DNA of 61,271 nucleotides from a virus (lineage: Duplodnaviria; Caudoviricetes), in IMG/VR virus record IMGVR_UViG_3300032083_000576, positions 1 through 61,271 of that record. The stretch is one strand, 5' to 3'. This document shows positions 19,121-51,255 of the stretch, piece by piece. How positions within the stretch are numbered: position 1 is the stretch's first letter; every line of letters begins with the position of its first letter. The translations under genes and the position numbers were made by a program. The notes under the pieces are model-generated. The model did no database searches. It was not told the DNA's origin and saw only the letters and a program-made list of their open reading frames with translations.

Positions 19121-19591
19121 ATGGCTATGACACCGACAGAAGAAATAATGATGATGGGACAAAGAGCAGATGTACCTATGGGTGATCCTAACGCACCTGC
19201 GCCACAGGCACCACCAGAAGCAATGGATGCAATGGATGCAATGACAGCCCTTATGGGTAATGAAGCAAGTTTAGGTTCAGAGATGGACAGACAGATGCCC
19301 GCGGACAGTGCTCAAATGATGGACGAAGATGCAGGAGCTTTAGCAGAAGCCGTGGTCGGCAGAGCAGGTGGGGATGTTATGGGTGCTATCGCATTATTAG
19401 ATAACGCAAAAGCCATGTTAATGGCTAGTGCCGAACAACCACAAATGGCGGCACAAGGTGGTGGTTTAATGCGTAAAGGCGATAAAAAATCTGTTGGTAT
19501 GTATAAAGACGGCGGGGTTATGTATAACAAAGGTGGTGGAGCAATGACTCCAGAAGAAGCCCTAAAACAACTAAACGACTACAGGTCTTAG
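19121..19591 (+). CDS. Met/Ala-rich small protein
   Basis: AGGAGA SD; AQGG, YKDGG, YNKGG motifs. Confidence 0.65.
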   Translation: MAMTPTEEIMMMGQRADVPMGDPNAPAPQAPPEAMDAMDAMTALMGNEASLGSEMDRQMPADSAQMMDEDAGALAEAVVGRAGGDVMGAIALLDNAKAMLMASAEQPQMAAQGGGLMRKGDKKSVGMYKDGGVMYNKGGGAMTPEEALKQLNDYRS

Positions 19592-21030
19592 CCGATCCAA
19601 TCTTTCCATTTATCATCACCTAGTACCTCTTGTGCTAGGTTGAGCTTATTTCGTAAAGCTTTTACAATTTTTTCATCAACGGTATCTTTCGATATCAAAT
19701 CAATATAAGTTACTTTATTTACCTGACCTATACGGTGCGCTCTGTCTTCAGATTGTAAACGTTTTTCTAAATCATAATTGTTACTATAATAAACAACATT
19801 ACTTGCTTGGTGTAGCGTGATCCCATAACCACCTGTTTGTGTATTACTAATTAAATATTGTAAACTAGAGTCGGGATCTTGGAATCTATCAATAATACCT
19901 TGACGGTCTTCTTCTGGTGTTCCGCCATAGTACGTAGCTACTGCGTCAACTCCTACAATATCATGTAACGTTCTTAAAATACGTTTTATATCGTATTGAT
20001 AGTTAGCCCATATAATTGTTTTACCTTGTATTTCTTCTAATACTTTTAATAATTCTTCGAGTCGATTGTTTTTAATTTCTATTTCTTCGCCTTCGTCGTG
20101 TTTTACAAACCCACAAGTAACTTGATGTAGTCGTAATATCTGTGTAAGTACCGAACTAACACTTACTATTTCATTAGATTCAAGTTCTGCTATTGCGTAA
20201 TCTTTTATTTGTGTATAGATTTTCTTTTGTTCAGGAGTAAGTTCTACTTCTCTTTTTTGATAAACCTTATCAGGAAGATCTAAACAATCTTTTTTCAGAA
20301 CTCTGTAAGAAAACTGGTTTACTTTTCCAGATAGTTCTTCTAGGTTTTGATACCCGACCACTTGTCTAAACGTTCGCTGCCCCATACTTCTATTTATTAC
20401 TTTCGCATAATGATTTTGGAAGGTATAAAAAGAAGAATAACCAAGTAATTCAGAACATAAGAACTCTGATTGACTAAATAGGTCTAGTGGTGACTGGGTA
20501 ACAGGAAAACCCGTTAGTATGCGTCTGTATTTGCTTTGTAATGCCAACTTAACAAGGTTCTTTGTCCGTTGTGCTTTCGGGTTCTTAATAGTAGTTGATT
20601 CGTCAACTGCCATCATAGCGTTATGAGTTAATAAAAACTTTTCTACAAACGCTACTCCTTTCTTAGTACTAAAGGCTTCTACGTTAATAACTAATATTTT
20701 TAAATCATCGGTTATATCAAATAGTTTTGTAAGTTGTAGTTTATCTTTTTTATTTGGAGCAGGATTCCAAACACCTATTCTTCTTAATACATGTTCAGGC
20801 ATGTGTGTGGGTATTTCACGTTCAGACCAGTTCTTATATACCCCCTTAGGGGCTACTATAACAGCGGCATTAATAGCTCCCCTGTCGTACAGTAGGGCTA
20901 TATTATCAACAAGTACTTTAGATTTACCTGTCCCCATTTCCATAAAATAAGCGAACTCTTTCTTATTCCAGGATCTTTTTAATGCTTCGAGTTGATGCTC
21001 GTAAGGCTCCGTTTTAAACTTATATTTCAT
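19588..21030 (-). CDS. SNF2-family helicase
   Basis: MEMGTGKS (Walker A), VDEST, LTGFP, GGYGITL, QSEDRAHRIGQ. Confidence 0.93.
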   Translation of the reverse strand: MKYKFKTEPYEHQLEALKRSWNKKEFAYFMEMGTGKSKVLVDNIALLYDRGAINAAVIVAPKGVYKNWSEREIPTHMPEHVLRRIGVWNPAPNKKDKLQLTKLFDITDDLKILVINVEAFSTKKGVAFVEKFLLTHNAMMAVDESTTIKNPKAQRTKNLVKLALQSKYRRILTGFPVTQSPLDLFSQSEFLCSELLGYSSFYTFQNHYAKVINRSMGQRTFRQVVGYQNLEELSGKVNQFSYRVLKKDCLDLPDKVYQKREVELTPEQKKIYTQIKDYAIAELESNEIVSVSSVLTQILRLHQVTCGFVKHDEGEEIEIKNNRLEELLKVLEEIQGKTIIWANYQYDIKRILRTLHDIVGVDAVATYYGGTPEEDRQGIIDRFQDPDSSLQYLISNTQTGGYGITLHQASNVVYYSNNYDLEKRLQSEDRAHRIGQVNKVTYIDLISKDTVDEKIVKALRNKLNLAQEVLGDDKWKDWIG

Positions 21031-21294: not shown

Positions 21295-21323
21295 TTTACT
21301 TTGCCGTTTTTGAAGAGTATCTT
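21295..21323 (+). promoter_or_regulatory. Promoter, TTTACT-N17-TATCTT
   Basis: Member of repeated promoter family; upstream of AGAAAGGAG SD and ATG 21352. Confidence 0.55.
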
Positions 21324-21351
21324 TATTCCTAAGAAATTAGAAAGGAGAAAA

Positions 21352-21672
21352 ATGACAGTATATGTTGTACAAGAAGTTACGGGACGGAATATTGCCTCTG
21401 CTAGACAGTATGGCGATTTTGAAGTTTTGTTACCTTCTCAAACCAATATAATGTTAAGTGCGGGTCCATCGGTTAGACGTATGAAGAAAATACTTCACGA
21501 CTATAAAGATGAGGACTACTTATTATTAATTGGAGATCCAGCGGCTATTGGAGTTGCGTGCTCAATAGCTGCATTTTATAATCGAGGTCGGTTTAGTATC
21601 CTTAAATGGGATAGACAGGAAGGGGTTTATTACCCAGTCCATATCGACCTACATCAGAAAGGAGAATTATGA
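21352..21672 (+). CDS. Conserved phage hypothetical protein
   Basis: AGAAAGGAG SD before ATG 21352; VYVVQE, LLLIGDPAAI. Confidence 0.8.
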   Translation: MTVYVVQEVTGRNIASARQYGDFEVLLPSQTNIMLSAGPSVRRMKKILHDYKDEDYLLLIGDPAAIGVACSIAAFYNRGRFSILKWDRQEGVYYPVHIDLHQKGEL

Positions 21673-22244
21673 ATATAGAAAACCCAACTTTTGAAGAACT
21701 CATTGGCGAAGAGAACGTAGAATCGTTTAATGATATCAACGAAGGTGAACTTTCATTAGTTTCTGCTTTAGCAAATAAACAGGTTCAACTAGCTCAAGAA
21801 CTAGCGAGTTTAGAAGAAGCTGTAAAAGCTAAAAAAGAAGAGTTTAGATTAACTTCAGAACAAGAGTTACCTGAGGCAATGCAGACTGCAGGGCTGACGG
21901 AAATAGTACTAAGTACTGGTGAGAAAATCACTGTTGCTGAGTTTTATAACGCTCATATATCTAAAGCTAATCAAGACATTGCGTACCTATGGCTAACCCA
22001 AAACGGACACGCGGGCTTAATTAAAAATGAAGTCTCGTTAAAGTTTGGTAGAGACGAAGATAGAATTGTTGAAGAAACAGTTATAGCTTTGAAATCTAGA
22101 GGGCTTGCTCCTGAAGTACGTCAGAGCGTTCATCCCAGTACGTTAAAAGCTTTTGTAAAAGAGCAATTAACATCAGGGAAGGACATACCAACAGAACCAT
22201 TTGGAATCTATATAGGTTCTAAAGCAATTATTAAGAAGGATTAA
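21669..22244 (+). CDS. Conserved replication-module protein
   Basis: LPEAM, WLxxNGHxGLIK, VHPSTLKAFVKE. Confidence 0.75.
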   Translation: MNIENPTFEELIGEENVESFNDINEGELSLVSALANKQVQLAQELASLEEAVKAKKEEFRLTSEQELPEAMQTAGLTEIVLSTGEKITVAEFYNAHISKANQDIAYLWLTQNGHAGLIKNEVSLKFGRDEDRIVEETVIALKSRGLAPEVRQSVHPSTLKAFVKEQLTSGKDIPTEPFGIYIGSKAIIKKD

Positions 22245-22248
22245 TATT

Positions 22249-23049
22249 ATGGCAGAAGAAAAAACAAGCCTAGCTGAGGCGAAACAAACAGCAATCGCTA
22301 CTTTTGACGATGATTTATTATCGGGTGGCACTGGACTAGAAGAAACTACGACTGAGGATTTTGCGATCCCCTTTATTAGGATTCTTCAACAGATGTCCCC
22401 ACAACTTAATAAACAAGACGGACGTTATAACGTTGACGCAGAAGCAGGAATGCTTGTTAACACAGTGACTAATGAAGTTTATGACGGTGAGAAAGGTATT
22501 ACGGTTGTCCCGTGTGCTTATGTTAAAAAATATATCGAGTGGGTTCCACGTGAAAAAGGCGGTGGTATAGTAAACACTGACCACAGTGCTTCGATACTTA
22601 AATCTTGTAAAAAAGATCTTGAGTCTCGTAGATTATTCCTCGATAACGGTAACGAGATTGTAGAAACAGCACAGTTTTTTGTGTTGGTTTTAGAGCCTCA
22701 ACCACAACAAGCAGTTGTGGCATTTACCTCGACACAGTTAGGCGCTTCTAGGAAATGGCTTACTATGTTAAGAATGGCTAGAGTACAAACTAGCAAAGGT
22801 CAGTCAGTATCTGCCCCAATGTTCGCTTATCAATACAACTTAGGTACTTTATCTCAGTCTAATGATAAGGGTTCGTGGAACGGTTATACTGTAAACCAAG
22901 AGGGTCCAACCGACGTAGAGACAGCACGAATAGCTAAAGAGTTTATGGATGCGGCAAGATCGGGTGATGTAGAAGTAAAAGAAGAGCAGCAAAGAGACGG
23001 AGCTAGAGTAGAAGTGCCTACAGACTCCGAGGAAAATGCTCCCTTCTAA
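22249..23049 (+). CDS. Putative ssDNA-binding protein
   Basis: DFAIPFIRILQQMSPQ, NDKGSW, acidic tail ending APF; upstream of primase. Confidence 0.6.
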   Translation: MAEEKTSLAEAKQTAIATFDDDLLSGGTGLEETTTEDFAIPFIRILQQMSPQLNKQDGRYNVDAEAGMLVNTVTNEVYDGEKGITVVPCAYVKKYIEWVPREKGGGIVNTDHSASILKSCKKDLESRRLFLDNGNEIVETAQFFVLVLEPQPQQAVVAFTSTQLGASRKWLTMLRMARVQTSKGQSVSAPMFAYQYNLGTLSQSNDKGSWNGYTVNQEGPTDVETARIAKEFMDAARSGDVEVKEEQQRDGARVEVPTDSEENAPF

Positions 23050-23066
23050 AATAAAGGAGAAGACAT

Positions 23067-24590
23067 ATGTCGTTAGCAGAGGAATTTGCTACACGTTACG
23101 CTGGATTACGGCAAGCATATGGAACCTTTACCGCTACGAATGAATCACGGGAAGACGGGAAAGAGGGTGGTAGAAACGTCACTATCTCTAAGGAATTATC
23201 TGAAAAAGATGTCCTGGAGTTGTGGACAAACCATCTATCGGGTGAACAAAGCATTGGGCTCGTGCCTATTGACGAGAACAATGCTTGTGTTTGGGGTGCG
23301 ATTGATGTCGATGAATATCAATTGGATCTCAAGGGGCTATCTAAAAAATTAGCCAAACATAAGTTACCCTTAGTCCTTTGTCGAAGTAAAAGCGGTGGAG
23401 CACACATATACTTGTTTATAGAAGAACCAGTACCCGCGTCACTATTACAAAGAAAACTTAGGCAGTTAGCCGCGTCCATTGGATATGGTCAGGCAGAGAT
23501 ATTTCCTAAACAAACACAGTTGTTATTAGACAGGGGAGACAGAGGTAGCACATTAAACATGCCTTACTTTGGTGGAGAAAACTCTACTAGGTATGCGTAT
23601 GGTAAAGAAGGTCAGGCATTAAGTCCTGAAGAATTTATAGAAAGAGTTAAGGAAATAACCTTAACAAAAGATGCAATAGAAAAACTGGAGGCTAGTCCAT
23701 TAGTAGAAAAAATAGATTGGCTAGATCAATCACCACCATGTATACAACACTTAGTTGTCCAAGGGTTTCCTAAAGGAACTCGTAACTCTGGGTTGTTTAA
23801 TGTAGGTGTCTTTCTTCGTAAAAAGTATCCCGATGAATGGGAGTTACGATTAGAAAAGGTAAATTTAGAATACATGCAACCACCTTTAGGTGCGCAAGAA
23901 GTATTAACAATAACTAAACAATTAAAAAGGAAAGATTATTTTTACAGGTGTAACGACCAACCGATAGCAAGTCATTGTAATAGTCCTCTATGTAGAACTA
24001 GAAAACATGGTATAGGGGCTAACGGCGGTACTCCATTATTTAGTAATTTAACTAAACAAGACAGTGACCCACCTATTTGGTTCCTGGATGTTGAAGGAGG
24101 ACGATTAGAACTAGAAACAGACGATCTCTTAAATCAAAACAGATTCCAACGTAAATGTATGGATGCGTTAAATAAGATACCCCCGAAGGTAAAAGATAAC
24201 GTCTGGAGACAGATTATACAACAGCTATTAGATAGCCTAACCGTTGTAGAGGTTCCTAAAGAATCATCTACTGAAGGGCACTTCTTAGAGTTATTAGAAA
24301 CTTTTTGTACCGAACGACCTGCTCGTGAAAAAGATGAGTTACTTCTTCATAAACCATGGACAGATATAGGTAAAACTTATTTTAGATTAGCAGACCTTAT
24401 GGAATACTTACATCGAAATAACTTTAAAGATTACCCTAGAAATAAACTTACATCTAAATTAAAACAAATGGAAGGGAGTCCGCACTTCTTTAATATAAAA
24501 GGTCGAGGTGTTAACGTATGGTGTATTAATGAATTTGTTACTCAAACTGAGTCTCATGACTTACCTGAGTTTAACGAGAATCCGATATGA
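23067..24590 (+). CDS. AEP-type primase with PriCT-like domain
   Basis: WGAIDVD, SKSGGAH, LNMPY; PPCI...GTRN, Cys cluster CNDQPIASHCNSPLC. Confidence 0.8.
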   Translation: MSLAEEFATRYAGLRQAYGTFTATNESREDGKEGGRNVTISKELSEKDVLELWTNHLSGEQSIGLVPIDENNACVWGAIDVDEYQLDLKGLSKKLAKHKLPLVLCRSKSGGAHIYLFIEEPVPASLLQRKLRQLAASIGYGQAEIFPKQTQLLLDRGDRGSTLNMPYFGGENSTRYAYGKEGQALSPEEFIERVKEITLTKDAIEKLEASPLVEKIDWLDQSPPCIQHLVVQGFPKGTRNSGLFNVGVFLRKKYPDEWELRLEKVNLEYMQPPLGAQEVLTITKQLKRKDYFYRCNDQPIASHCNSPLCRTRKHGIGANGGTPLFSNLTKQDSDPPIWFLDVEGGRLELETDDLLNQNRFQRKCMDALNKIPPKVKDNVWRQIIQQLLDSLTVVEVPKESSTEGHFLELLETFCTERPAREKDELLLHKPWTDIGKTYFRLADLMEYLHRNNFKDYPRNKLTSKLKQMEGSPHFFNIKGRGVNVWCINEFVTQTESHDLPEFNENPI

Positions 24591-25168
24591 TGCATTTTAT
24601 GAAAGAGGGTATGAAAGAATATATCCCCTATATAGAGAAGTGGGACGCGCCGTCCGAAAGAATGTTTAACGGTAGAAAAGTTATGGGAAGACCTACCAGA
24701 GCGTTCGGCACTTCGTCTTTCGAATATGCTGGAAAGTTATATGAACCTGATCCATGGACTAAAAATATAGAATGGATAAAAGAAGGTGCAGAAGAATATG
24801 TAAAACGAGTCGTTGACCGTGAGGTAGAGTTTACTTTTTGTTTATGCGGTATGTATAAAAATGGTCGTATAGGTGTCCCAGCTCATTCAGATACTGTCCC
24901 TACCCAAAAAGACCTCGTTATTTCTATATCGTTTGGCGAACCAAGAATATTTACATGGAAAGAATACGATAGAAATATAAAAACTACATGTAATACGAGT
25001 GAGGTAGATATTACAGAAGCAAATATTAAAAAATACACCACCTATTTGTTAAGACATGGTGATGTGATTATATTTGATGGAGCTTCTCAAATGAATACAA
25101 CACATGCCGTACCCAGACTACGAGGAGTGGGCGAACGTATTAACCTTACTTTTAGGACTGGAATATGA
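24587..25168 (+). CDS. AlkB-like 2OG-Fe(II) dioxygenase
   Basis: HSD...ISISFGEPR...HAVP...RINLTFR. Confidence 0.9.
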   Translation: MMHFMKEGMKEYIPYIEKWDAPSERMFNGRKVMGRPTRAFGTSSFEYAGKLYEPDPWTKNIEWIKEGAEEYVKRVVDREVEFTFCLCGMYKNGRIGVPAHSDTVPTQKDLVISISFGEPRIFTWKEYDRNIKTTCNTSEVDITEANIKKYTTYLLRHGDVIIFDGASQMNTTHAVPRLRGVGERINLTFRTGI

Positions 25169-25314
25169 ATTGTTGGCATTGTAAAACAGAATTAATTTGG
25201 GGCGGAGACCATGAGATTGAAGAAGAAAGTGAAGATTACAGCATGGTTACTAATTTATCTTGTCCTAACTGTGCTGCTTTTGTAGAGGTTTATTATAAAA
25301 ATGACATTACCTGA
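25165..25314 (+). CDS. 49-aa zinc-ribbon protein; not in ORF track
   Basis: MNCWHC...WGGDH...LSCPNC; ATGA coupling. Confidence 0.75.
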   Translation: MNCWHCKTELIWGGDHEIEEESEDYSMVTNLSCPNCAAFVEVYYKNDIT

Positions 25315-26797
25315 CCACACACAAGTAATTCTTGGACCACCTGGAACAGGAAAGACAAGTACATTACTTGGTCTTATAGAAGACGAATTAGAAAAACAAA
25401 CAGACCCAACTCGAATAGGTTTTTTTACGTTTACGAAAAAAGCTGTAAACGAGGGCAAACAACGTGCGATGGAAAGGTTTGACTTATCGCAGAGAGATTT
25501 ACCTTTCTTTCGCACACTTCATTCATTAGCGTTTAGACAACTAGGGCTTTCTAAAGAAAGCGTTATGGATTTAAAAGATATAAGAGAACTAAACGAAGTT
25601 CTTAATTTAAGATTAACGGGTGGAGTAAATACTGATTCAGGACATTTGTTTGGCATGAGCCACGACGATCGACTAGCGTTTATAGAAAACCTATCCCGTA
25701 TGCGTCAAGTATCTTTAGAAGATCAATGGCACGATGTTGATGATGCAGTAGGTTGGTTTGAATTAGAACGTTACGCGCGAGGGTTACAGTTATTTAAAGA
25801 TGATAGGTTGTTAGTTGATTATACTGATATGTTAAAACTGTTTTTAGAAAAAGGAGACGTACCAAAACTAGAGGCAGTTTTTGTAGATGAGGCACAAGAC
25901 TTATCCCCCCTACAGTGGTCAGTGGTTCGTAAGATTATAAAAAATGCAGATAGAGTTTATGTTGCTGGCGATGATGATCAAGCAATCTATAAATGGGCAG
26001 GAGCCGATGTAGATTATTTAATTAAAAACGCAACTAATGCTACGATCCTAGAACAGTCTTATCGAATACCGTCAGCTGTTCATGAATTAGCGAGCCGATG
26101 TATTGGTCAAGTTAGATCCAGGATACATAAATCATGGTTGCCTAGAAAAGAAACAGGTTTAGTTAGGTGGGAGCCATCTATCGAATTGATCGATATGGAA
26201 AAAAGTGATTGGTTAGTTCTTGCGCGGACTAATTATTTACTAGAACAGATAGATGAATACTGTAGAAATGAAGGTTGGTTTTTTGAAGTTAAGGGAAGAC
26301 CTAGTATTTCTGAATCAAAAGTCAGAGCCGTACTAAATTGGCAAAAACTACAGCTAGGGGATAGTTTACCCCTTTCAGAATGCGTCAATCTGTTAAAATT
26401 TGTTAACGTTCGTAGGGCTAACTCCCTAGATGTTTTAGAGATTGACGCGATGATGACGCTAACTAGTCTTAAAGAACGCTTTCCTGACCTACCTGAAGGT
26501 GATTGGTACGATGCGCTTACAGGATTAAGCCCAAAAGACATCAGTTACATTCGAGCGATGTTACGTAGAGGAGAAAAAATTACTAAAGAACCTAGAATTA
26601 GGTTATCGACCATACATGCTGCAAAAGGTGGGGAGGCAACCAACGTAGTTTTGTTAACTGATATAACAAACAGGGTTTATAAAACATACCAACAAAATCC
26701 TGATGATGAAAACAGAGTGTTTTATGTTGGGCTTACTAGGGCAAAAGAAAACTTGTACCTTATTGAGCCCTCAACAACGCGCTGCTTCCAAATATAA
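25301..26797 (+). CDS. UvrD/Rep-like SF1 helicase
   Basis: GPPGTGKT, VDEAQD, AGDDDQAIY, QSYR, TIHAAKGGE, YVGLTRAK. Confidence 0.95.
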   Translation: MTLPDHTQVILGPPGTGKTSTLLGLIEDELEKQTDPTRIGFFTFTKKAVNEGKQRAMERFDLSQRDLPFFRTLHSLAFRQLGLSKESVMDLKDIRELNEVLNLRLTGGVNTDSGHLFGMSHDDRLAFIENLSRMRQVSLEDQWHDVDDAVGWFELERYARGLQLFKDDRLLVDYTDMLKLFLEKGDVPKLEAVFVDEAQDLSPLQWSVVRKIIKNADRVYVAGDDDQAIYKWAGADVDYLIKNATNATILEQSYRIPSAVHELASRCIGQVRSRIHKSWLPRKETGLVRWEPSIELIDMEKSDWLVLARTNYLLEQIDEYCRNEGWFFEVKGRPSISESKVRAVLNWQKLQLGDSLPLSECVNLLKFVNVRRANSLDVLEIDAMMTLTSLKERFPDLPEGDWYDALTGLSPKDISYIRAMLRRGEKITKEPRIRLSTIHAAKGGEATNVVLLTDITNRVYKTYQQNPDDENRVFYVGLTRAKENLYLIEPSTTRCFQI

Positions 26798-26804
26798 AAA
26801 CTTC

Positions 26805-26834
26805 TTTACTTTGCACATAAAAGTAAAGGATAAT
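26805..26834 (+). promoter_or_regulatory. Promoter of nucleotide-modification cluster, TTTACT-N18-GATAAT
   Basis: Family motif, with CTTTACT/AGTAAAG inverted repeat and AGAAAGGAG SD downstream. Confidence 0.55.
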
Positions 26835-26861
26835 TAAATCTGTTAAAAGAAAGGAGAAAAT

Positions 26862-27713
26862 ATGTCATCTATAAGAAAAAAATTAAAAGTTAATGAAAAC
26901 GATAGCAAAAATACTCGTATGGATTTAGCTTCTGCAGGAGTCCTAGGAAACTGGAGACCTGATGAATTAGCTCATATGAGTCGATTCGATAAAATTGCGA
27001 GTCTTGCTATAGAAGAGGCTAAATTGTTAGGCAGACCATTAGATACCTTAGAAATAGGTTGTGGTGAGTGTTGGTCTTTACGTGTGCTTTATAAAGCGTA
27101 CGTCGTAAAAAAGTCTGATATTATTAGTTCGTATAAAGGATACGATATTGATCCTGCCTGTGAACTAGATAATAGGTTCTGGTCTAACGGCGGTGGAGAA
27201 CTAAAAGATTCTACTTGGTTTAAGAATTTCAATGGCGAAATACGTATACAAGATTTAACAACTAATCCGATATTAGATATACCTGACGAAAGTATAGATT
27301 TCTTTTGGTCTACTGAAGTTATAGAACACATGGGTAGAGAATTTGTTCCACCATGGCTTGATGAAGCTGCAAGGGTTATGAGACCTGATGCTATCGCTTA
27401 TATATCAACACCCAACCATGACGGCTCTAACGATAAGTTGCCCGAGGATCATGTCTACGAATGGGGTTTTCAAGAATTAAAAGAAGAACTAGAAAGAAAC
27501 TTCCGTATAGAAGCAGTAACAGGTACGTTTATGCAAATGCCTAAATTAAAGAAAGCTATGTCTCAAGTAACTGAAATGAATGCTAGAGGGTGGAGCATAG
27601 AACAACTTTTAATGTTACAAGAACGTTTCGGTAAACAGTTTTTAAGAATGGCGGCAGCTGTATTCTATCCAGAGATAGCAAACAACTGCGCGTGGAGGCT
27701 CGTTAAGAAGTGA
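26862..27713 (+). CDS. Class I SAM-dependent methyltransferase
   Basis: LEIGCG motif I, GYDID, STEVIEH, ISTPN, HVYEW. Confidence 0.85.
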   Translation: MSSIRKKLKVNENDSKNTRMDLASAGVLGNWRPDELAHMSRFDKIASLAIEEAKLLGRPLDTLEIGCGECWSLRVLYKAYVVKKSDIISSYKGYDIDPACELDNRFWSNGGGELKDSTWFKNFNGEIRIQDLTTNPILDIPDESIDFFWSTEVIEHMGREFVPPWLDEAARVMRPDAIAYISTPNHDGSNDKLPEDHVYEWGFQELKEELERNFRIEAVTGTFMQMPKLKKAMSQVTEMNARGWSIEQLLMLQERFGKQFLRMAAAVFYPEIANNCAWRLVKK

Positions 27714-28594
27714 TTCACGAACTACGAGAAAGACTCGATACCTACTTTTATTGGATACACGAACGGGAAACTATTCGTTTAAATAAAGAAGTAGAACAAA
27801 AACCACCACCTTGGACGGATGATTCTATCTTACAAAAGTTTAAGTTTTGTCAAGTCTTTCGAGAAGATGATAGAACAACACGTTGGTTTAGAACTCATAT
27901 CCGAGACCCTTACCGAGACGACCCTGAGGTATTAATGGCTACGGTAATCTTCCGTTGGTTTAATTACATAGAAACAGGAAGGACTTTAGTAAAGAATAAA
28001 CTACACCTAGAGTGGGATAGAAAGAAAGCTATCGAAGAAATAACAAAACAAAATAAATGGGTAACAGGTGCTTATATTGTTAAGACACCTAACCGCATGG
28101 ATAAAGTAACAGGGGTGGCTGAATGTATATCCCATATGTGGGGAGATAGAGAAAAGCTAGTAGAAAAAATACTCGCGACTAATTCATTAGAAAAATCTTG
28201 GAACATATTAAGAGATTATCCGTACATGGGTCCATTCATGGCTTATGAGGTCATAACGGATTTAAGACATACTTATTTATTACGAGATGCTGAAGATATA
28301 CTAACTTGGGCTAATGCTGGTCCAGGAGCCATGCGGGGACTTAATAGGCTCGCGGGCAGAGAACTTGGGTTCTGTAAACGCAGTCACCCGTGGAACGAAG
28401 AAATGAGAAACTTATGGGAAATATCTCGTGAAAAACTCAACCCTAACTTAATCGATTTAGATAAGTTTGAAATGAGAGAGATAGAAGGAGGACTTTGTGA
28501 ATTTGATAAATACTCTAGAATTCTAAATGAAGAGGGAAGAACACGAAGTGTATATAAGTATAACGAAGATCTACCTTTGGTAGAAGAAATATAG
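27710..28594 (+). CDS. aGPT-Pplase1 / 5-hmdU DNA kinase helical-domain protein
   Basis: ERExIR...PWTDDxILxxFKFCxVFREDDR, FRWFN, GPFMAYEVITDL, GPGAMRGL, EGGLCEFDKY. Confidence 0.85.
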   Translation: MIHELRERLDTYFYWIHERETIRLNKEVEQKPPPWTDDSILQKFKFCQVFREDDRTTRWFRTHIRDPYRDDPEVLMATVIFRWFNYIETGRTLVKNKLHLEWDRKKAIEEITKQNKWVTGAYIVKTPNRMDKVTGVAECISHMWGDREKLVEKILATNSLEKSWNILRDYPYMGPFMAYEVITDLRHTYLLRDAEDILTWANAGPGAMRGLNRLAGRELGFCKRSHPWNEEMRNLWEISREKLNPNLIDLDKFEMREIEGGLCEFDKYSRILNEEGRTRSVYKYNEDLPLVEEI

Positions 28595-28606
28595 AAAGGA
28601 GAAAAG

Positions 28607-28828
28607 ATGAGCGGATATAAAGATATAGCTATAGATTTATTAGAACAATACGGGGATGTAGTAGATATATATTACACACAGTTTTTAGAGGTGGCTTTCT
28701 TTTTAAAAGTACCTGCAAGCTACGAAATGGCTTTAGGTTTCTTAAAAAAGAAACTACCACAACTTACAGACGAACAATTACATTTCCTAATTAACGAAAT
28801 AACAAGCGCATACCAAGATACGATATGA
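28607..28828 (+). CDS. Hypothetical protein
   Basis: AGAAAGGAG SD; 73 aa. Confidence 0.7.
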   Translation: MSGYKDIAIDLLEQYGDVVDIYYTQFLEVAFFLKVPASYEMALGFLKKKLPQLTDEQLHFLINEITSAYQDTI

Positions 28829-29868
28829 AAGTAATTCGAGCAAGAAACGTAAACGACGCTCTACTATTGGGATTAGATTTATTCCAAGACCCTCGTAACT
28901 TTCGTGAACAAGAAAGCAGGAACGGAACAACTTACGAGGCATTAGAACCTGTAACAACAGTATATGAAAAACCATGGGAAAGAGTATTGCTTCTTAAGAT
29001 ACGAGACGCTAATCCATTTTTTCATTTTATAGAGGGCTTATGGATGTTGGCAGGTCGTAAAGATTTAGCGCCATTAACTCGATATGTTAAATCTATGGAG
29101 AACTTTTCTGACGACGGAGAAACTCTATGGGGAGCCTACGGTTGGCGATGGAGAGATTATTTTCATAAAGACCAAATTACTATGGTTATTGATATGTTAC
29201 GTAAAAACCAAGACGAAAGACGATGCGTATTACAGATGTGGGATGCTAATAAAGACCTTGCACGAGCTAGTAAAGACGTGCCATGTAATACGAATATCTA
29301 TTTTAAGATACGGGATAAAAAACTACATATGACTGTTTGTAATCGTTCTAACGATATGCTTTGGGGAGCTTACGGTGCTAACGCAGTTCATATGTCTATG
29401 TTACAAGAATATATCGCAGGACATCTTGAAGTCGAAATAGGAACATATAGACAAATTAGTGATAGTTTTCACGTATACCATAACGAAGTATGGGAAAGGG
29501 TAAAAGGTTTAGAAATAGACCCATGGACTTATTCTAATTTAAAGAACCCTTACGATACGCTAGAAGGGATCGTATATACCAACTTTATAACTAACCCTAA
29601 AACTTTTGATCGGGAGTTAGATCGATTCTTTAATATGCCTCCTGAGGATATAGATTTATATCAAGACGGGTGGGAAAATGCTGCTTTTGTAGATATAGCA
29701 TTACCCATGGTAAGGACGTTTAACGCACATAAAAACAAAGATTACATACAAGCATATCGAGAAGTTATGAAAATTCTACCAAACGACTGGATGACAGCTT
29801 GTTTTGATTGGATTAAAAAGAGAGATTTATCTTGGACACTTAATAACGAAGGAGGAAACAATGGATAA
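28825..29868 (+). CDS. Thymidylate-synthase-fold enzyme, probable dUMP hydroxymethylase
   Basis: ESRNG, NPFFH, GAYG, RRCVLQMWD, DVPCN (catalytic Cys), RSNDMLWGAYGAN (Asn at the dUMP-specificity position), SFHVY; next to a 5hmdU-kinase-like gene. Confidence 0.85.
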   Translation: MKVIRARNVNDALLLGLDLFQDPRNFREQESRNGTTYEALEPVTTVYEKPWERVLLLKIRDANPFFHFIEGLWMLAGRKDLAPLTRYVKSMENFSDDGETLWGAYGWRWRDYFHKDQITMVIDMLRKNQDERRCVLQMWDANKDLARASKDVPCNTNIYFKIRDKKLHMTVCNRSNDMLWGAYGANAVHMSMLQEYIAGHLEVEIGTYRQISDSFHVYHNEVWERVKGLEIDPWTYSNLKNPYDTLEGIVYTNFITNPKTFDRELDRFFNMPPEDIDLYQDGWENAAFVDIALPMVRTFNAHKNKDYIQAYREVMKILPNDWMTACFDWIKKRDLSWTLNNEGGNNG

Positions 29869-30220
29869 TAAGTGGGAAAGTATGCGCGATATAGCGCAAT
29901 TAGACTTACAAGCGCTTAAAAAAGCTGAAGAGTCTTATGGGAATTCATGGAGACGACGCGGTGGCGTGGGTGCTTTTATGATGTTGGCACGTAAGTTCGA
30001 TAGGATCGAGCACCAAGCTGAAAAGCACGGGTGGGATATATTTGAGGCAGGCGAAGTCTATAAAGGCGAAGCTGGTCTACTCGATGATATACGAGATTTG
30101 CGTAGGTATCTGATACTTGTCGAGGAGTTTATTCTCGATAACTCAGGTGATATTAATAACGAAGACACGGAGGAAGAGTCATGGGATGGTTCAACTGGTT
30201 CAGAAGAACAAAACCAATAG
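29861..30220 (+). CDS. Nmad1/DUF1599-like MazG-fold nucleotide-modification-associated protein
   Basis: SYGNSW...ARKFDRI...DDIRDLRRY; GGAGG SD before ATG 29861. Confidence 0.7.
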   Translation: MDNKWESMRDIAQLDLQALKKAEESYGNSWRRRGGVGAFMMLARKFDRIEHQAEKHGWDIFEAGEVYKGEAGLLDDIRDLRRYLILVEEFILDNSGDINNEDTEEESWDGSTGSEEQNQ

Positions 30221-30510
30221 TAGCTGACTCAGAGGGTAAAAGCCCTTTTGAACAAGCTAAAGAAATCTTGTCACAAGATAATAAAAAAGAGGATATTATT
30301 TCTCAAAAGATGGAAGAAGCAACGGTAGAACTCGAAAAGTTCGAAGAAGCTGATATCGTTAAAGAAGTTCCTAAAAGGGCTCGGACTAATAAAGGAACTT
30401 ATAAGTCAGACGATAAATCTACACCTGATGTTAATGAAGCTTGGGAAGGTGGTAAATCACCAAAGCCTAAGAAAAAGACTGTAAAAGTCATTAGGAAGAA
30501 AAAGAAATAA
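30181..30510 (+). CDS. Hypothetical protein
   Basis: RARTNKGTYKSDDKSTPDVNEAW motif; basic tail. Confidence 0.7.
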   Translation: MGWFNWFRRTKPIVADSEGKSPFEQAKEILSQDNKKEDIISQKMEEATVELEKFEEADIVKEVPKRARTNKGTYKSDDKSTPDVNEAWEGGKSPKPKKKTVKVIRKKKK

Positions 30511-32369
30511 TGCAACAATCTCCAATATTCGCTCCTGAAAGTAACTGGTCTATACCAGAAATCTTTCCTAAATTTGCAGATAACGAACGTATAGCTATAG
30601 ATTTAGAAACATATGATCCACACTTATTAACTTCAGGTCCAGGATGGGCTTCGAATCGTGGTCATGTGGTAGGAGTGGGTGTTGCCACTAAAGATTGGAA
30701 AGGTTACTTTCCGATTCGTCATGAAGGCGGTGGCAACCTTGATGAGGCAGTTGTTTTGCGGTGGGTGAAAAATACTCTATCTTCTACGAAGAGAGAAGTA
30801 ATCTTCCATAACGCACTTTATGATGTTGGATGGTTGAGAAGAGAAGGAGTGGACGTAAAGGGTAAAATCCTTGATACTATGTTTGCTGCTCCAATCGTAG
30901 ATGAGAACCGATACTCTTACTCTCTTGATTCATTAGGACATCTATATTGTGGGGAAAAGAAGGACGAATCGTTGCTGCAAGATGCTGCCTTAGCATGGGG
31001 AATAAATCCTAAGTCCGAAATGTATAAACTTAATTCTAAATATGTCGGACCATATGGAGAACAAGATGCTGCTTTGACATTAAAGCTGTATGAAAAATTA
31101 AAAATAGAATTACAAGAACAAGGATTAGAAGCAATCTACGACTTAGAATGTAAATTAATCCCTTTATTGATCGAGATGCGTTGGAGAGGTGTCCGCGTAG
31201 ATGAACAAAGAGCAGAAGATATAAGTAAAGACTTATCGCTCAAAGAACAAAAACTATTAGTAGAAATTAAAAGAAAGTACGGTGAAGATGTAAACCTCTG
31301 GGCTAATGCTTCTTTACAAAAAGTATTCGATAAAAACAATCTACCTTATCCTAGAACAGAAAAAGGTATGGCTAGTTTCCAAAGGCAATGGCTTGAGGGT
31401 CACGAACACGAGCTACCTAAGATGATAGTACAAGCTAGGAAACTTAACAAAGCTAGGACTACATTTATTGAAAAGATGATATCAGAACACGCGGTTAACG
31501 GAAGAATACATGCAGAAGCACATCCGTTACGTAACGACTCAGGTGGTACGGTTAGCGGTCGTTTTAGTTACAGCAACCCTAATCTACAACAAGTGCCTGC
31601 CCGTGATCCAGAGATAGGTAATCTAATTCGTTCTTTATTTATTCCAGAAGAAGGTTGTCAGTGGGGTGTGTTCGATTACTCACAACAAGAACCTAGACTT
31701 ACCGTACATTACGCTAATAAGATGGGTTTGGTAGGGGCTAAAGATGCCGTAACCGCCTATAGGGATAAGAACGCGGACTTCCACCAGATAGTGGCGGATA
31801 TGGCTAAAATACCCCGTAAACAGGCTAAAAATATTAATCTAGGACTTAGTTATGGAATGGGTAAAGCTAAACTTGTAAAAGAACTAGGATTAAACGATTC
31901 AGAAGCAGAAGTTCTACTTGCTCAATACCATGAAAAAGTGCCGTTTATTAAAGGATTACAAGATCAATGTGCTCGGGTCGCTATGGATAGAGGATATATA
32001 AAAACACTTGCGGGAAGAAGGTGTCACTTCGACCTATGGGAACATAAGTACGATAAAAGCTTACCGTTGCCATTGGAAGAAGCTAGAGAAAAATACGGAG
32101 ACGTTTTAAAAAGGTCTTATACATATAAAGCCCTTAATAGACTGATTCAAGGTTCGGCAGCTGATATGACAAAATTAGCTATGCTCGGACTGTGGGAAGA
32201 AGGAATAGTTCCCCACGTACAAGTTCACGATGAGGTGGACATATCTATACATGATAATGAACAAGCAGCAACAGTTTCAAGAATAATGGAAAACTGTGTC
32301 GAACTTGCTGTTCCCCTTGTAGTAGATACTGAACTCGGTCCAAACTGGGGATCAACGGAGGAAATTTAA
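30510..32369 (+). CDS. polA: Family A DNA polymerase with 3'-5' exonuclease
   Basis: IDLET, HNALYD, GRFS..NPNLQQVP, DYSQQEPR, RKQAKNINLGLSYG, IQGSAAD, VHDE. Confidence 0.97.
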   Translation: MQQSPIFAPESNWSIPEIFPKFADNERIAIDLETYDPHLLTSGPGWASNRGHVVGVGVATKDWKGYFPIRHEGGGNLDEAVVLRWVKNTLSSTKREVIFHNALYDVGWLRREGVDVKGKILDTMFAAPIVDENRYSYSLDSLGHLYCGEKKDESLLQDAALAWGINPKSEMYKLNSKYVGPYGEQDAALTLKLYEKLKIELQEQGLEAIYDLECKLIPLLIEMRWRGVRVDEQRAEDISKDLSLKEQKLLVEIKRKYGEDVNLWANASLQKVFDKNNLPYPRTEKGMASFQRQWLEGHEHELPKMIVQARKLNKARTTFIEKMISEHAVNGRIHAEAHPLRNDSGGTVSGRFSYSNPNLQQVPARDPEIGNLIRSLFIPEEGCQWGVFDYSQQEPRLTVHYANKMGLVGAKDAVTAYRDKNADFHQIVADMAKIPRKQAKNINLGLSYGMGKAKLVKELGLNDSEAEVLLAQYHEKVPFIKGLQDQCARVAMDRGYIKTLAGRRCHFDLWEHKYDKSLPLPLEEAREKYGDVLKRSYTYKALNRLIQGSAADMTKLAMLGLWEEGIVPHVQVHDEVDISIHDNEQAATVSRIMENCVELAVPLVVDTELGPNWGSTEEI

Positions 32370-32713
32370 TGAGAGGAATCTCAAAACAAAAAGCTGACGA
32401 AAACTCAATACGATACAGGTCTATTTACGATAAATGGTTATCAGAAGAAGCACTTACTCTATCTGAATTAGGAGAAGAGTACGAGGTAACTAAACAACGT
32501 ATGTGGCAGATCATCACTAGATGCAAACTCGGTAACGGAGATTATTATTACGGAGTAAAACTTGCTAGAGATAAATGGTCTGAACTCTACTCTACTTATA
32601 GAGATAAAGAACAAACTCGATTAGCTTTTAATGAATGGTTGGAAAATAATAAAATTAAAGTGATAGGCAATAATAAAAAAGTTGCACCACATACAGGATG
32701 GGATATGTTCTAA
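32369..32713 (+). CDS. HTH protein, sigma-70 region 4-like
   Basis: LTLSELGEEYEVTKQRMWQI. Confidence 0.65.
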   Translation: MRGISKQKADENSIRYRSIYDKWLSEEALTLSELGEEYEVTKQRMWQIITRCKLGNGDYYYGVKLARDKWSELYSTYRDKEQTRLAFNEWLENNKIKVIGNNKKVAPHTGWDMF

Positions 32714-33354
32714 TGTTCGAAGAAGAAAGGTTATGTGAGTATTGTGGGGCAGAGTATGTGACAAAAACACAGACTCAGTTATTTTGTAGTAAAGAATGTA
32801 AGCAACAAAATCAATACGATAAAAATAAAAATCCCTACAGTATAACCAATCTTACAGAACATCGTTTCACAGAAGTCCCAAACAGCTACGGAGAATATTA
32901 CGTAGATCCTGAAATACTTCGTCAAGCAGAACTCTACTCAGATTGTGCTGTAGATGCTAATTTTGGATATACCAGTGAAATTCAAGAAGACTCAGATGAT
33001 TTACATATGATTTTGCGTAGTGAATATTCGTATCAAAAAGCTAGGTATGAAAAAAGACATAACGCTAAATACAGTGGTAGAAATTATTGGGAAGCAAAAC
33101 TTCTAAGAAACTATCATAGAAAGAAAGTAGGAGTTCCCGAACTACCGACTATTCGATACCATAGTTTCGAAAGGCAACTAAATGAACATCATGAACAAAA
33201 ACAAGGTAAAAAACTTAAAAAGTCTGCACCATCAGAAGCAGAACTACAAACTCCAGGATTTACTACGATCACTCCTATGAAAACAAAGAGCGGTAGATTA
33301 ACTTCAGAAATATTAGATAATGTCAAAAGAAAAAAATCTGTGGGCTCTACTTAG
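32713..33354 (+). CDS. Zn-finger hypothetical protein
   Basis: CEYCG...FCSKEC; TAATG coupling at 32713. Confidence 0.65.
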   Translation: MFEEERLCEYCGAEYVTKTQTQLFCSKECKQQNQYDKNKNPYSITNLTEHRFTEVPNSYGEYYVDPEILRQAELYSDCAVDANFGYTSEIQEDSDDLHMILRSEYSYQKARYEKRHNAKYSGRNYWEAKLLRNYHRKKVGVPELPTIRYHSFERQLNEHHEQKQGKKLKKSAPSEAELQTPGFTTITPMKTKSGRLTSEILDNVKRKKSVGST

Positions 33355-39408: not shown

Positions 39409-39799
39409 AGCAGTAATAGCTTTCGATGAAAAACATAGATGGAAAGATCAATGTCCAGCAATATACCTTCATTGGCATGGTAGTCGACATACCGTAGAGG
39501 GCTTTTTACGAGCCGCAAAAGATTTCGGTATACGAGGTGATGACCCTAGTTATTGTATGGCTAGATTGACGCAAGTTATCGGCAATGCGATTAACGGTAC
39601 ATTATCACTCGGTGTCGGATGTTACGGCAACTTCGGCGATCCAGGTGACAACGGTGTCTATTGGATTCGAAACTGGGAAATAGTTGAACACGTAACTGAC
39701 TACCCTAATGAATGTTCAAAAGAAGATGTTGACCATACATATATCGGAGTCGTTAACGCTAACGAAGGTTTTCATGAAGTCGGAGCTAAACAACAATGA
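39398..39799 (+). CDS. Conserved phage hypothetical protein
   Basis: MGNRAVI...IYLHW.G...DNGVY. Confidence 0.75.
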   Translation: MGNRAVIAFDEKHRWKDQCPAIYLHWHGSRHTVEGFLRAAKDFGIRGDDPSYCMARLTQVIGNAINGTLSLGVGCYGNFGDPGDNGVYWIRNWEIVEHVTDYPNECSKEDVDHTYIGVVNANEGFHEVGAKQQ

Positions 39800-40242
39800 C
39801 AAAAATAGAAATTATATTTACCGATAAACGTGCCGAGGATCTTCACCCCCCGCAATATGCGACTGTAGGATCTGCAGGAATGGATTTACGAGCCTTAGAA
39901 CATACTGTGATACATCCTGGAGAAACTATACCATTTTCTATGGGTTACCGAATATATATCGGAGACCATACGCTTTGCGGATTAATCGTTCCTAGATCAG
40001 GTTTAGGAATAAAAGGCATAATGCCCGCAAACGTATTAGGATTAATCGATTCTGACTATCAAGGAGAGTTAATAGTACACCTTAAAAACCATGGAGACGA
40101 AAACTTTCTAGTAGAAAGCGGCGACCGTATTGCTCAATTAGTTATTATGCCAGTTGAGTCTGTATATTTTTCGATAGTATCAGAGTTTAAACATTCTACG
40201 GATCGTGGCGAAGGCGGGTTCGGAAGTACAGGAGAGAGATAA
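39796..40242 (+). CDS. dut: Trimeric dUTPase
   Basis: All five motifs: AGMDL, PRSGLG, GLIDSDYQGE, GDRIAQL, RGEGGFGSTG. Confidence 0.96.
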   Translation: MTKIEIIFTDKRAEDLHPPQYATVGSAGMDLRALEHTVIHPGETIPFSMGYRIYIGDHTLCGLIVPRSGLGIKGIMPANVLGLIDSDYQGELIVHLKNHGDENFLVESGDRIAQLVIMPVESVYFSIVSEFKHSTDRGEGGFGSTGER

Positions 40243-51057: not shown

Positions 51058-51255
51058 ATGGATTATATTAAAGCGGCGGAGCATTTGCTCCAAAAAATAC
51101 GAAAGAGAAAAGAAAATCTTTCGCAAACACTGGCTACAGGTAGTGTTCAGGATTTTGAACAATATCATAGAGTAGTTGGTGAAATCGCAGGTTTGAATAT
51201 AGCGGAGCAGGAGATTCAAACTTTAAATAAAAATATGGAGGACATAGATGACTGA
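51058..51255 (+). CDS. Conserved hypothetical protein
   Basis: G..QDFEQYHRVVGEIAGL motif, typical just upstream of phage GroES. Confidence 0.75.
   Translation: MDYIKAAEHLLQKIRKRKENLSQTLATGSVQDFEQYHRVVGEIAGLNIAEQEIQTLNKNMEDIDD

Follow-up and report, generated by a model that had tools for sequence, protein, structure and literature searches.

To our knowledge, every worked-out route of thymidine hypermodification begins with two enzymes, a DNA kinase and a transferase for amino acids or amines. The closest described clusters are those of phages PaMx11 and M6, which are connected with the bases 5-AcNmdU and 5-NedU (available passages of PMC8989533). PaMx11 has its kinase as a P-loop protein of its own, 189 aa long (gp49), and the adjoining gp50 is a protein of Pfam family PF18723; the available part of Table 1 of the same paper also gives the two as separate proteins. 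Here we describe a related cluster in the IMG/VR record IMGVR_UViG_3300032083_000576 (Caudoviricetes), which is a complete virus record, 61,271 bp long, with a CheckV completeness of 100% and a composition of 33-43% GC. This whole stretch is called the window below. The cluster lies at 26862-30220 on the plus strand and encodes, in this order, a methyltransferase (MT), a PF18723 protein (HEL), a 73-aa open reading frame (ORF), an enzyme of the thymidylate synthase (TS) fold and a 119-aa ORF, followed by a 109-aa ORF and a DNA polymerase (PolA). The features are:

26805-26834, plus strand: weak sigma-70-like match TTTACT-N18-GATAAT (9/12 consensus), within the 64-nt gap 3' of the UvrD-like helicase gene
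26862-27713, plus strand: MT, class I S-adenosylmethionine (SAM)-dependent methyltransferase, 283 aa (Methyltransf_23, Methyltransf_11)
27710-28594, plus strand: HEL, 294 aa (PF18723, HMUDK_hel)
28607-28828, plus strand: 73-aa ORF, no family above cut-off
28825-29868, plus strand: TS-fold enzyme, 347 aa, assigned as a dUMP 5-hydroxymethyltransferase (PF00303, phrog_5131)
29861-30220, plus strand: 119-aa helical protein, alternative TTG start at 29804
30181-30510, plus strand: Lys-rich ORF of 109 aa, placed after the 119-aa ORF and before polA, membership of the module uncertain
30510-32369, plus strand: PolA, family A DNA polymerase with 3'-5' exonuclease (DNA_pol_A 1.8e-62, exonuclease 6.6e-11)
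39796-40242, plus strand: trimeric dUTPase (Pfam dUTPase 3.5e-30; NCBIfam NF001862 144.6 bits against a cut-off of 103)

When the two clusters are set side by side, the kinase gp49, the HEL protein gp50, the TS-fold enzyme gp51 and the PolA gp55 of PaMx11 face MT, HEL, the 73-aa ORF, the TS-fold enzyme and PolA of the window, so that MT occupies the slot of the PaMx11 kinase gene. HEL is 42% identical to gp50 and the TS-fold enzyme 42% to gp51, PolA follows a few genes downstream (at the position of PaMx11 gp55 and of gp28 of phage PhiJL001), the helix-hairpin-helix (HhH) type fold family is the same and so is the need for a supply of dUMP. In contrast to the PaMx11 and M6 clusters (as far as covered by the passages of PMC8989533), the window has neither a P-loop kinase for 5-hydroxymethyl-deoxyuridine (5-hmdU) in DNA nor a PF18724 transferase, and no flavin (FAD), acetyltransferase, pyridoxal phosphate (PLP) or radical SAM enzymes; it has a SAM methyltransferase at the position of the kinase gene, and its backbone consists of SU10-adaptor and Pam3-like genes with 37% GC. 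At the DNA level, comparison with cultured phages gave a single match of 149 nt, in the TS gene, and nothing else. We tentatively read the cluster as a kinase-less and transferase-less variant of 5-hmdU DNA modification, in which 5-hmdU would be O-methylated to 5-methoxymethyl-deoxyuridine and HEL would add a further Cys-dependent step.

An initial annotation of this DNA, made from the letters alone, had named a class I SAM methyltransferase, a small ORF, a TS-fold enzyme with the dUMP-type Asn and a dUTPase elsewhere, and all four were recovered: MT scores above the cut-offs of Methyltransf_23 and Methyltransf_11, the small ORF is the 73-aa frame at 28607-28828, the TS-fold enzyme matches PF00303 and carries the motif RSNDMLWGAYGAN, and the dUTPase lies at 39796-40242. 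It had placed the cluster just before polA; PolA is indeed downstream, with the 109-aa ORF intervening between the 119-aa ORF and PolA. A promoter of its own, which had also been assigned to the cluster, found no backing. The only match is the 9/12 one at 26805-26834, and the region 24000-33000 has no excess of promoter-like sites (19 against 26.5 +/- 5.2 expected from shuffled sequence), so this match is no evidence of a promoter. A GGAG ribosome-binding site lies between it and the MT start.

The same annotation had described a 5-hmdU-type thymidine-modification cluster without the known later enzymes, and this description held in all searches. Pfam was run on 85 ORFs of the window and PHROGs on 65 of the 85 (12 in the cluster region and 53 without a Pfam match); neither scan returned a 5-hmdU DNA kinase, an amino-acid:DNA transferase (ADDT), a PLP, radical SAM or FAD oxidoreductase enzyme, an acetyltransferase, a deoxynucleoside monophosphate (dNMP) kinase or a dCMP deaminase. 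A profile search for transferase, kinase, PLP and radical SAM domains had been suggested with the description, and it found no transferase among the ORFs. A six-frame search of the window with PF18748, PF18747 and PF18724 at E<=10 was empty, and five relatives of 98-100% completeness lacked PF18724 and PF18748 as well; as a positive control, PaMx11 gp46 scores 97 bits on PF18724. Plausible Walker-A motifs in the window were confined to the UvrD-like helicase and the terminase frame, three others lying in short or opposite-strand frames, and the same pattern recovered the kinases of PaMx11 (gp49) and of two metagenomic loci (L135 and L146). With PaMx11 gp49 and gp46 as queries, tblastn against the window gave a best E of 0.54, and a set including the dNMP kinases, nucleoside triphosphate pyrophosphatases (NTP-PPases) and dCMP deaminase of the AXL3-type cassettes described below gave nothing better than E 0.22. 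Because no kinase was detectable by family models, Walker-A scan or BLAST, and the scan controls worked, a phosphorylated intermediate appears unsupported at the level of sequence.

The TS-fold enzyme is assigned as a dUMP hydroxymethylase that would make 5-hmdUMP, on the basis of its homology to gp51, its Asn-type motif and its scores under the ThyA cut-offs. It matches PF00303 (1.7e-22) and phrog_5131 (3.9e-109), and in the motif RSNDMLWGAYGAN an Asn stands at the position that decides between dUMP and dCMP. Its PCN motif with the catalytic Cys and its GAN motif align with PaMx11 gp51. These positions we take to be equivalent to C146 and N177 of E. coli; the catalytic Cys and the Asn are shared with dUMP hydroxymethylases as well and do not discriminate these from ThyA. 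The 42% identity to gp51 extends over 338 aa and includes a common C-terminal extension, which places the enzyme in a subfamily of 347-350 aa together with PaMx11 gp51 and PhiJL001 gp24. Its best cultured relatives are found in PhiJL001 and in M6/YuA-like, PaMx11-like, SP82G and ViI-like phages, the nearest belonging to phages whose DNA has hydroxymethyluracil or hypermodified T. In addition, it stays below all NCBIfam equivalog cut-offs for ThyA (97.7 against 174.55 for TIGR03283, 67.3 against 327 for NF002497 and 53.2 against 108.35 for TIGR03284). The possibility raised earlier that this enzyme makes dTMP is thus not borne out by sequence, as it groups with dUMP hydroxymethylases rather than with ThyA.

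HEL had been called aGPT-Pplase1/5hmdU-DNA-kinase-like. The first half of this label stands and the second does not, since HEL consists of the helical domain alone and has no P-loop. It matches PF18723 with E 1.5e-48 and 166 bits (cut-off 25) over profile positions 3-278 of 281. A structure search with its AlphaFold2 (AF2) model (pLDDT 85.7) returned exclusively HhH-glycosylase-type proteins in the top 33 rows (glycosylases, PUGT and the queuine-salvage protein DUF2419), and the next row had a Z of only 2.8. The model aligned with the HhH glycosylase MjOgg at Z 11.2 and with the crystal structure of PaMx11 gp46/PUGT (PDB 8z2n) at Z 9.4, over 224 residues and covering both proteins end to end. 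HEL carries the motif E259-G-G-L-C263-E264-F-D-K267; among 125 diverse family members (representatives at 50% identity), C263, E264 and K267 are 100% and E259 is 97% conserved. A profile-profile alignment, itself weak (E 0.33), sets E259 and C263 of HEL on E243 and C247 of gp46, which are the metal-binding Glu and the catalytic Cys of that enzyme (PMC11472151 and PMC8989533, relevant passages). Alignments read by eye show a Cys/Glu motif of the transferase type and not the Asp of glycosylases. We therefore read HEL, from its transferase fold and the conserved Cys/Glu pair, as an enzyme that, in DNA, probably attacks 5-substituted uracil at C6. HEL is a clade-1 aGPT-Pplase with an HhH glycosylase-like fold, a predicted paralogue of the amino-acid:DNA transferase (aGPT-Pplase2/ADDT/PUGT) without a kinase domain. 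The two share the fold and, by the weak profile alignment, the E-x-x-L-C motif; they differ in that HEL belongs to another Pfam family, PF18724 giving no match to HEL at E<=0.01 nor to the six frames of the window at E<=10, and in that the phosphorylated substrate is not available in the window phage. A sequence search of solved structures with HEL gave 0 matches.

The HEL family is large (4,457 representatives at 50% clustering), and in the records examined PF18723 was confined to thymidine-modifying contexts. Its usual motifs are E-H-x-L-C-E-x-D-K and F-[CT]-N-x-x-R-E-x-D, the His and the Asn each being conserved in 94% of the 125 sequences; in the window HEL the His is replaced by Gly260 and the Asn by Gln48. 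Both replacements are fixed across the subclade of the window HEL but not in a sister MT-linked clade. The residue after the motif Glu is thus Gly in the window HEL, Thr in gp46 and His in most HEL proteins, and Gly is common to the window subclade (EGGLCE) and to the kinase-fused domain of phage SP10 (EGWCCE). Gly260 was considered as a mark of the MT-linked HEL proteins and rejected, since this sister clade keeps the His (EHSLCE). Three longer HEL proteins were found, of which one is a fusion of HEL and PolA and two have no second domain. The fusion, a metagenome protein of 931 aa (P0003), has a family A DNA polymerase domain and a C-terminal PF18723 domain, a hint that HEL may work at the replication fork or close to it. 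Among 150 listed representatives, the extensions of 28 extended ones contained no Pfam domain at E<=0.01.

MT scores 33.1 bits on Methyltransf_23 (cut-off 27) and 30.3 bits on Methyltransf_11 (cut-off 21.2). Its AF2 model (pLDDT 78.5) matches many class I methyltransferases in Foldseek with a probability of 1.00; the nearest folds, at a TM of about 0.47, are TleD, AtmM/RebM and BioC, which are small-molecule O-, C- or N-methyltransferases. In an alignment of 26 sequences, motif I of the G-x-G-x-G type (EIGCGE) and the acidic residue after strand 2 (YDID) are invariant, and with a mean column identity of 75% MT ranks with the most conserved proteins that the cluster encodes. The motifs (D/N/S)PP(Y/F/W) and PCQ/ENV of DNA amino- and C5-methyltransferases are not conserved in this alignment as judged by eye, and the lone VPPW of the window MT reads VPAW, ISAW or IGAW in relatives. 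Residues 1-31 (26862-26954) are near-invariant in the 26 sequences (M1, S3, I4, R5 ... R19, M20, D21) and yet have a pLDDT below 50; this N-terminal stretch may cover the substrate as a lid or serve as a tail that binds a partner. We found 286 MT homologues at E<=1e-3. A sequence search of solved structures gave 2 weak matches only, and in a protein atlas the clusters near MT were viral only. When one genome each of 185,579 prokaryote species was searched, six loci were obtained, all on contigs of metagenome-assembled genomes of 5-49 kb with the same cassettes. The MT family thus looks restricted to phages or phage-like contigs.

To see how constant this arrangement is, we scanned IMG/VR with MT and obtained 74 loci in which MT is 55-91% identical. 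MT stands directly before HEL in 74/74 of them, and the TS-fold gene, with its Asn-type motif, was present in 72/74, the other two loci ending before the gene; this gene order is more than chance would give. The 119-aa gene (by tblastn) and PolA were found in 71/74. For the small frames a complete homologue was recovered in 42/74 loci (73-aa ORF) and 47/74 loci (109-aa ORF). The HEL gene starts within the end of MT, with an overlap of 4 nt in the window and of 1 or 4 nt in 66/70 relatives. A second scan with a diverse HEL alignment gave at least 597 pattern matches, at least 560 of which encode a relative; 80 loci were kept, and 57 of these 80 have an MT of at least 50% identity. Among the 57 is a deeper sister clade, of the L109/L124 type, with the same MT-HEL-TS-PolA order, in which MT is 54-57% and PolA 57-59% identical. 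MT-HEL-TS occurs in no fewer than 130 distinct IMG/VR loci.

The surroundings of HEL vary in a way that bears on the role of MT. We surveyed the variable slot in 15 of the 80 HEL loci, scanning 102 of 160 extracted ORFs. On similar UvrD...PolA backbones, HEL and the TS-fold gene are accompanied by MT (L109, L124), by a P-loop kinase, to which ADDT, FAD enzyme and acetyltransferase may be added (L135, L146), by an FkbM-type methyltransferase and a GT1 glycosyltransferase (L119, 3366-8224), by radical SAM/SPASM enzymes beside 320-350-aa proteins that look like GT-B glycosyltransferases by eye (L126, L128, L183), by a nucleotidyltransferase and a radical SAM enzyme (L132), by TAGT glycosyltransferases (L160, and L188 with tandem HEL paralogues and a radical SAM enzyme) or by dCTP-deaminase-like and DenV-like genes (L112, L123, L166). 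HEL and the TS-fold gene are therefore a constant core around which the tailoring genes vary. As many loci show other tailoring genes in the slot, kinase-less HEL clusters are common. Slot enzymes of understood function modify the hydroxymethyl oxygen, and the clusters of L119, L126, L128, L132, L183 and L188 probably each make a different thymine derivative.

Among cultured phages, PhiJL001, a phage of Alphaproteobacteria, resembles the window in having the HEL and TS-fold core (gp19 and gp24, both 45% identical) and no recognisable kinase, and the loci L119, L126, L128, L132, L160, L183 and L188 share the UvrD...HEL...TS...PolA backbone. They differ from the window in their tailoring genes, which are TAGT (with Nmad5 in PhiJL001) or GT1 glycosyltransferases, an FkbM-type methyltransferase or radical SAM/SPASM enzymes and not a Methyltransf_23/11 enzyme. 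We also observed that, in several kinase-less loci, the gene just upstream of HEL (PhiJL001 gp18 at L003:6559-7014, L112:3047-3748, L166:3200-3883 and L183:3270-3872) encodes proteins with a common C-terminal motif, NPK[RK]xGSxxxxxFxxYxxGxT...KG[YF]I, and without Walker-A; they may be DNA-binding partners.

More distant relatives of MT occur in a second kind of cassette. Only five cultured or assembled phage records have an MT relative, and in the three that we examined the homologue stands directly before genes for an NTP-PPase, a dNMP kinase (327 aa in Stenotrophomonas phage AXL3, unannotated in MW202621), a TS-fold enzyme of about 265 aa and a dCMP deaminase, with no HEL. The three are L078, L079 (AXL3 gp27-gp32) and L080; an extra 199-aa protein belongs to the cassette and is absent from L078 and a few others. 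The same cassette was found in 28 more IMG/VR loci (L081-L108). These distant homologues are 25-27% identical to MT and conserved end to end, including residues outside the SAM motifs. In AXL3 gp27-gp31, the homologue gp31 (27% identical) keeps the conserved residues, beginning with R..D...H..R at the N-terminus and ending with N..W..K at the C-terminus, and, like the window MT, is directly linked to a TS-fold pyrimidine C5 enzyme, which gp31 adjoins; R5, D34, H38 and R41 of MT are retained even in the AXL3-type homologues. In contrast to the window, the AXL3 cassette lacks HEL and adds the NTP-PPase, the dNMP kinase and the dCMP deaminase, and its TS-fold enzyme is of the Asp (dCMP) type, as in 30/31 cassette loci (one locus is truncated), so that cytosine rather than uracil is the likely target. 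MT hence tracks TS-fold enzymes of both base specificities, whose products have the C5 one-carbon group in common. The AXL3-type cassette predicts a methylated derivative of 5-hydroxymethyl- or 5-methyl-cytosine. AXL3 DNA is resistant to 35/37 restriction enzymes and is cut only by two with A/T-only sites (passages of PMC7504290); the cassette probably underlies its resistance to enzymes with G/C-containing sites.

We propose that MT is a tailoring enzyme, for which O-methylation of a 5-hydroxymethyl-pyrimidine is predicted from sequence context. Its conservation, the overlap of its stop with the HEL start, its place in the kinase slot and the link of its family to TS-fold enzymes in other phage lineages tie MT functionally to the cluster. 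Since this cluster is of the 5-hmdU type and lacks the known later enzymes, a methylated, different end product is a reasonable prediction, as the initial annotation had suggested; the phosphorylated intermediate that it allowed for is not supported, no kinase having been detected. In the route that we favour, judged from homology, the dUTPase would provide dUMP and keep dUTP out of DNA, the TS-fold enzyme would convert dUMP to 5-hmdUMP, and host kinases together with the phage PolA, which presumably accepts 5-hmdUTP, would place 5-hmdU in DNA instead of T. MT, judged from gene context, would then move the methyl group of SAM to the 5-hydroxymethyl oxygen, on DNA or on the nucleotide, and give 5-methoxymethyl-deoxyuridine; O-methylation is proposed because other slot enzymes decorate the same oxygen, kinases with phosphate and glycosyltransferases with sugar. 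Finally, a DNA-binding, base-flipping HEL might attack C6 and process hydroxymethyluracil (hmU) or the methyl ether via an exocyclic-methylene intermediate. The whole route would run without a phospho intermediate.

The class I SAM enzymes TrmR, CmoM and Trm9 methylate an oxygen on the C5 substituent of the wobble uracil in tRNA. The likeness of these enzymes to the proposed MT step is a chemical analogy only, the acceptor being in both cases an oxygen on the C5 substituent of uracil in a polynucleotide; they differ in that the substrate of MT would be DNA or a deoxynucleotide, and the top fold matches of MT are generic and point to no specific relationship.

Several points weigh against this route. 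The kinase models of Pfam have low sensitivity, since gp49 of PaMx11, a proven kinase, reaches just 18.1 bits on PF18748, and a very divergent non-P-loop kinase is possible. The substrate of MT is read solely from its neighbourhood, and by its generic fold matches O-methylation is not distinguishable from methylation of C, N or carboxylate. MT may act on free nucleotides or on another atom, the former because the AXL3-type homologues sit among nucleotide-pool enzymes without HEL. As a leaving group, a methyl ether has no advantage over a hydroxyl, so MT does not obviously feed HEL. In M6, lysate of gp55, whose synteny suggests that it is the HEL homologue, was dispensable for producing N-alpha-GlyT (excerpts of PMC8989533). 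Lastly, SP10 has a HEL-type domain only and no ADDT, and this gene content suggests that HEL itself can be a group transferase. A wider form of the proposal, that a phage-only MT family makes 5-methoxymethyl-uracil here and 5-methoxymethyl-cytosine in AXL3-like phages, and that the clade-1 aGPT-Pplase works kinase-free, seems to us rather doubtful.

The main rival explanation takes up the last point and makes HEL a kinase-independent group transferase, with MT methylating the appended group. Cys263 would attack C6, water would leave, an amine, amino acid or thiol would add, and MT would then methylate the product on N, S or carboxyl, as in mnm5U and mcm5U of tRNA. HEL does share the transferase fold and the catalytic-type Cys/Glu, the MT and HEL genes overlap by 4 nt, and a parallel between T hypermodification and the xm5U chemistry of tRNA is drawn in the passages of PMC8989533. 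SP10, which makes glutamyl-thymidine (PMC5889632 and PMC11472151, in part), has one open frame of 653 aa with a Walker-A motif near the start and a PF18723 match near the end, a fused protein listed in the available Table 3 of PMC5889632; with a single PF18723 domain behind the P-loop kinase and no PF18724 at E<=0.01, the HEL-type domain is the sole family candidate for the transferase there. However, the fusion to a kinase means phosphate activation in SP10, and none is available here. The fusion probably also explains the Pfam name '5-hmdU DNA kinase, helical domain'. The Gly after the motif Glu, which SP10 has in common with the window subclade and which replaces the His of 94% of the family, was given little weight because it is absent from the deeper sister MT-linked clade with the usual EHSLCE and so does not track MT. 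In addition, the AXL3-type MT homologues occur without any HEL, and the substrate feature shared by the MT family would have to differ between lineages. We consider HEL unlikely to be such a transferase.

In another explanation, which we likewise hold to be improbable, the DNA contains plain 5-hmdU (or 5-hmdU partly reverted to T by HEL) and the target of MT is something else, namely a different base atom, the pool of nucleotides, RNA, a protein or some small molecule, so that there would be no new thymine derivative. The fold and family matches of MT are indeed non-specific. Beyond MT and HEL the module would require no other enzyme if hmU itself protects the DNA, as in the hmU phages of Bacillus (named in the passages of PMC8989533), to whose TS-fold enzymes that of the window is related (SP82G). 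According to the same paper, hypermodifying phages turn leftover hmU into thymine, no enzyme being named there. Against this, MT is found tightly and exclusively beside TS-fold C5 enzymes of two base specificities, in at least three deep MT lineages and with no cellular genome context, which an unrelated target would hardly explain, and its conservation is among the highest in the cluster. Moreover, the restriction resistance of AXL3 DNA is far above what is expected of an unmodified genome (PMC7504290, in part).

Ordinary nucleotide metabolism, with a thymidylate synthase, a repair glycosylase homologue and DNA that is unmodified save for possible conventional methylation, is very unlikely. 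TS-fold genes of this kind are routinely annotated as 'thymidylate synthase', and both the catalytic Cys and the dUMP-type Asn are present. However, the TS-fold enzyme scores under all ThyA cut-offs and has the C-terminal extension of the PaMx11 gp51/PhiJL001 gp24 subfamily, PF18723 occurs only in thymidine-modifying contexts in the records examined, and HEL has the Cys/Glu pair and not the glycosylase Asp. That HEL phosphorylates 5-hmdU in DNA and the phospho-hydroxymethyl group is then methylated, as the Pfam name of PF18723 might imply, is hardly credible, since the helical-domain model spans the 294-aa protein end to end (3-278 of 281) and leaves no P-loop, and the kinase is a separate protein in PaMx11 (gp49) and a separate N-terminal domain in SP10, with none elsewhere in the window.

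The DNA of this phage group thus probably holds an undescribed thymine substitute. We found no description in the literature of this MT family, of a kinase-less HEL cluster or of a function of the clade-1 aGPT-Pplases, and older surveys or supplements may mention them; methoxymethyl-uracil, -cytosine and -deoxyuridine were met only in unrelated chemistry, and no report of a 5-methoxymethyl pyrimidine in DNA was found. The closest remarks concern the 'combinatorial diversity' of hypermodification contigs (PMC8989533) and the co-occurrence of O-methyltransferases with phage T-dioxygenases (section 12 of PMC13229309). A cluster that lacks kinase and transferase and yet keeps the hydroxymethylase and the clade-1 paralogue is a natural system for studying clade-1 function, and the candidate new base needs just one enzyme, SAM and 5-hmdU DNA. 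If the proposed route is true, 5-methoxymethyl-pyrimidines would be a natural class of DNA bases not yet described, and the clade-1 aGPT-Pplase family would be able to act on unphosphorylated 5-hmdU. The MT-HEL-TS group is not rare among uncultured phages of marine type, and the MT family extends to the cultured, restriction-resistant phage AXL3. New base chemistries have yielded tools before, such as the 5-hmdU DNA kinase as a reagent. Bases of this kind also have a bearing on marine virome sequencing and on how phage defence and counter-defence are interpreted.

The 119-aa protein at the end of the cluster had been called Nmad1-like. Nmad1 is PF07659 (available part of bioRxiv 10.1101/2021.07.29.453957), and PF07659/DUF1599 matched neither this protein nor its 26 relatives at E<=1, nor the six frames of the window at E<=10, so that family models lend the label no support. 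The protein has 42 invariant positions among 27 sequences. It gave no Pfam, PHROG or PDB match, a profile search of solved structures returned 0 matches, and hhalign of its profile against the AXL3 NTP-PPase gave nothing. A viral cluster of the ESM Atlas similar to it (score 0.97), in which 11% of the members have PF07659, is a lead only. An apparent fusion of the TS-fold enzyme with the 119-aa protein in six loci was rejected, as an in-frame TAA separates both genes.

Two genes upstream of MT, at 24587-25168, lies a gene for an AlkB-like 2-oxoglutarate-Fe(II) oxygenase (PF13532, 9.1e-20). In tRNA, ALKBH8 acts on a modified base. By analogy, the AlkB-like oxygenase might act on a modified base, or it might remove stray N-methyl lesions. 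The gene was found in 50/74 related loci and is absent from the more distant MT-HEL loci, and is therefore not essential to the module.

Elsewhere in the window, the plus strand carries all large genes but one. The sole sizeable gene on the minus strand encodes an SNF2-family helicase (19588-21030), and adjoining it, at 21301-24590, are genes like gp32/33/34 of Pam3 and one for a primase of the AEP-TOTE type. The phage belongs with an uncultured group that has replication genes in common with cyanophage Pam3, and SU10-type adaptor proteins. Between the portal and head genes lies one for a Cpn10/GroES-like protein (51248-51682; PF00166, 2.7e-09). Finally, a block at 5445-10154, amid lysis and structural genes, encodes a CsgF-like protein (5445-5915), a CsgG-like protein (5821-6660), a FecR-domain protein (7282-8400) and a protein with CHASE2 and adenylate/guanylate cyclase domains (8400-10154); such a curli-secretion-like and cyclase block is unusual for a phage.

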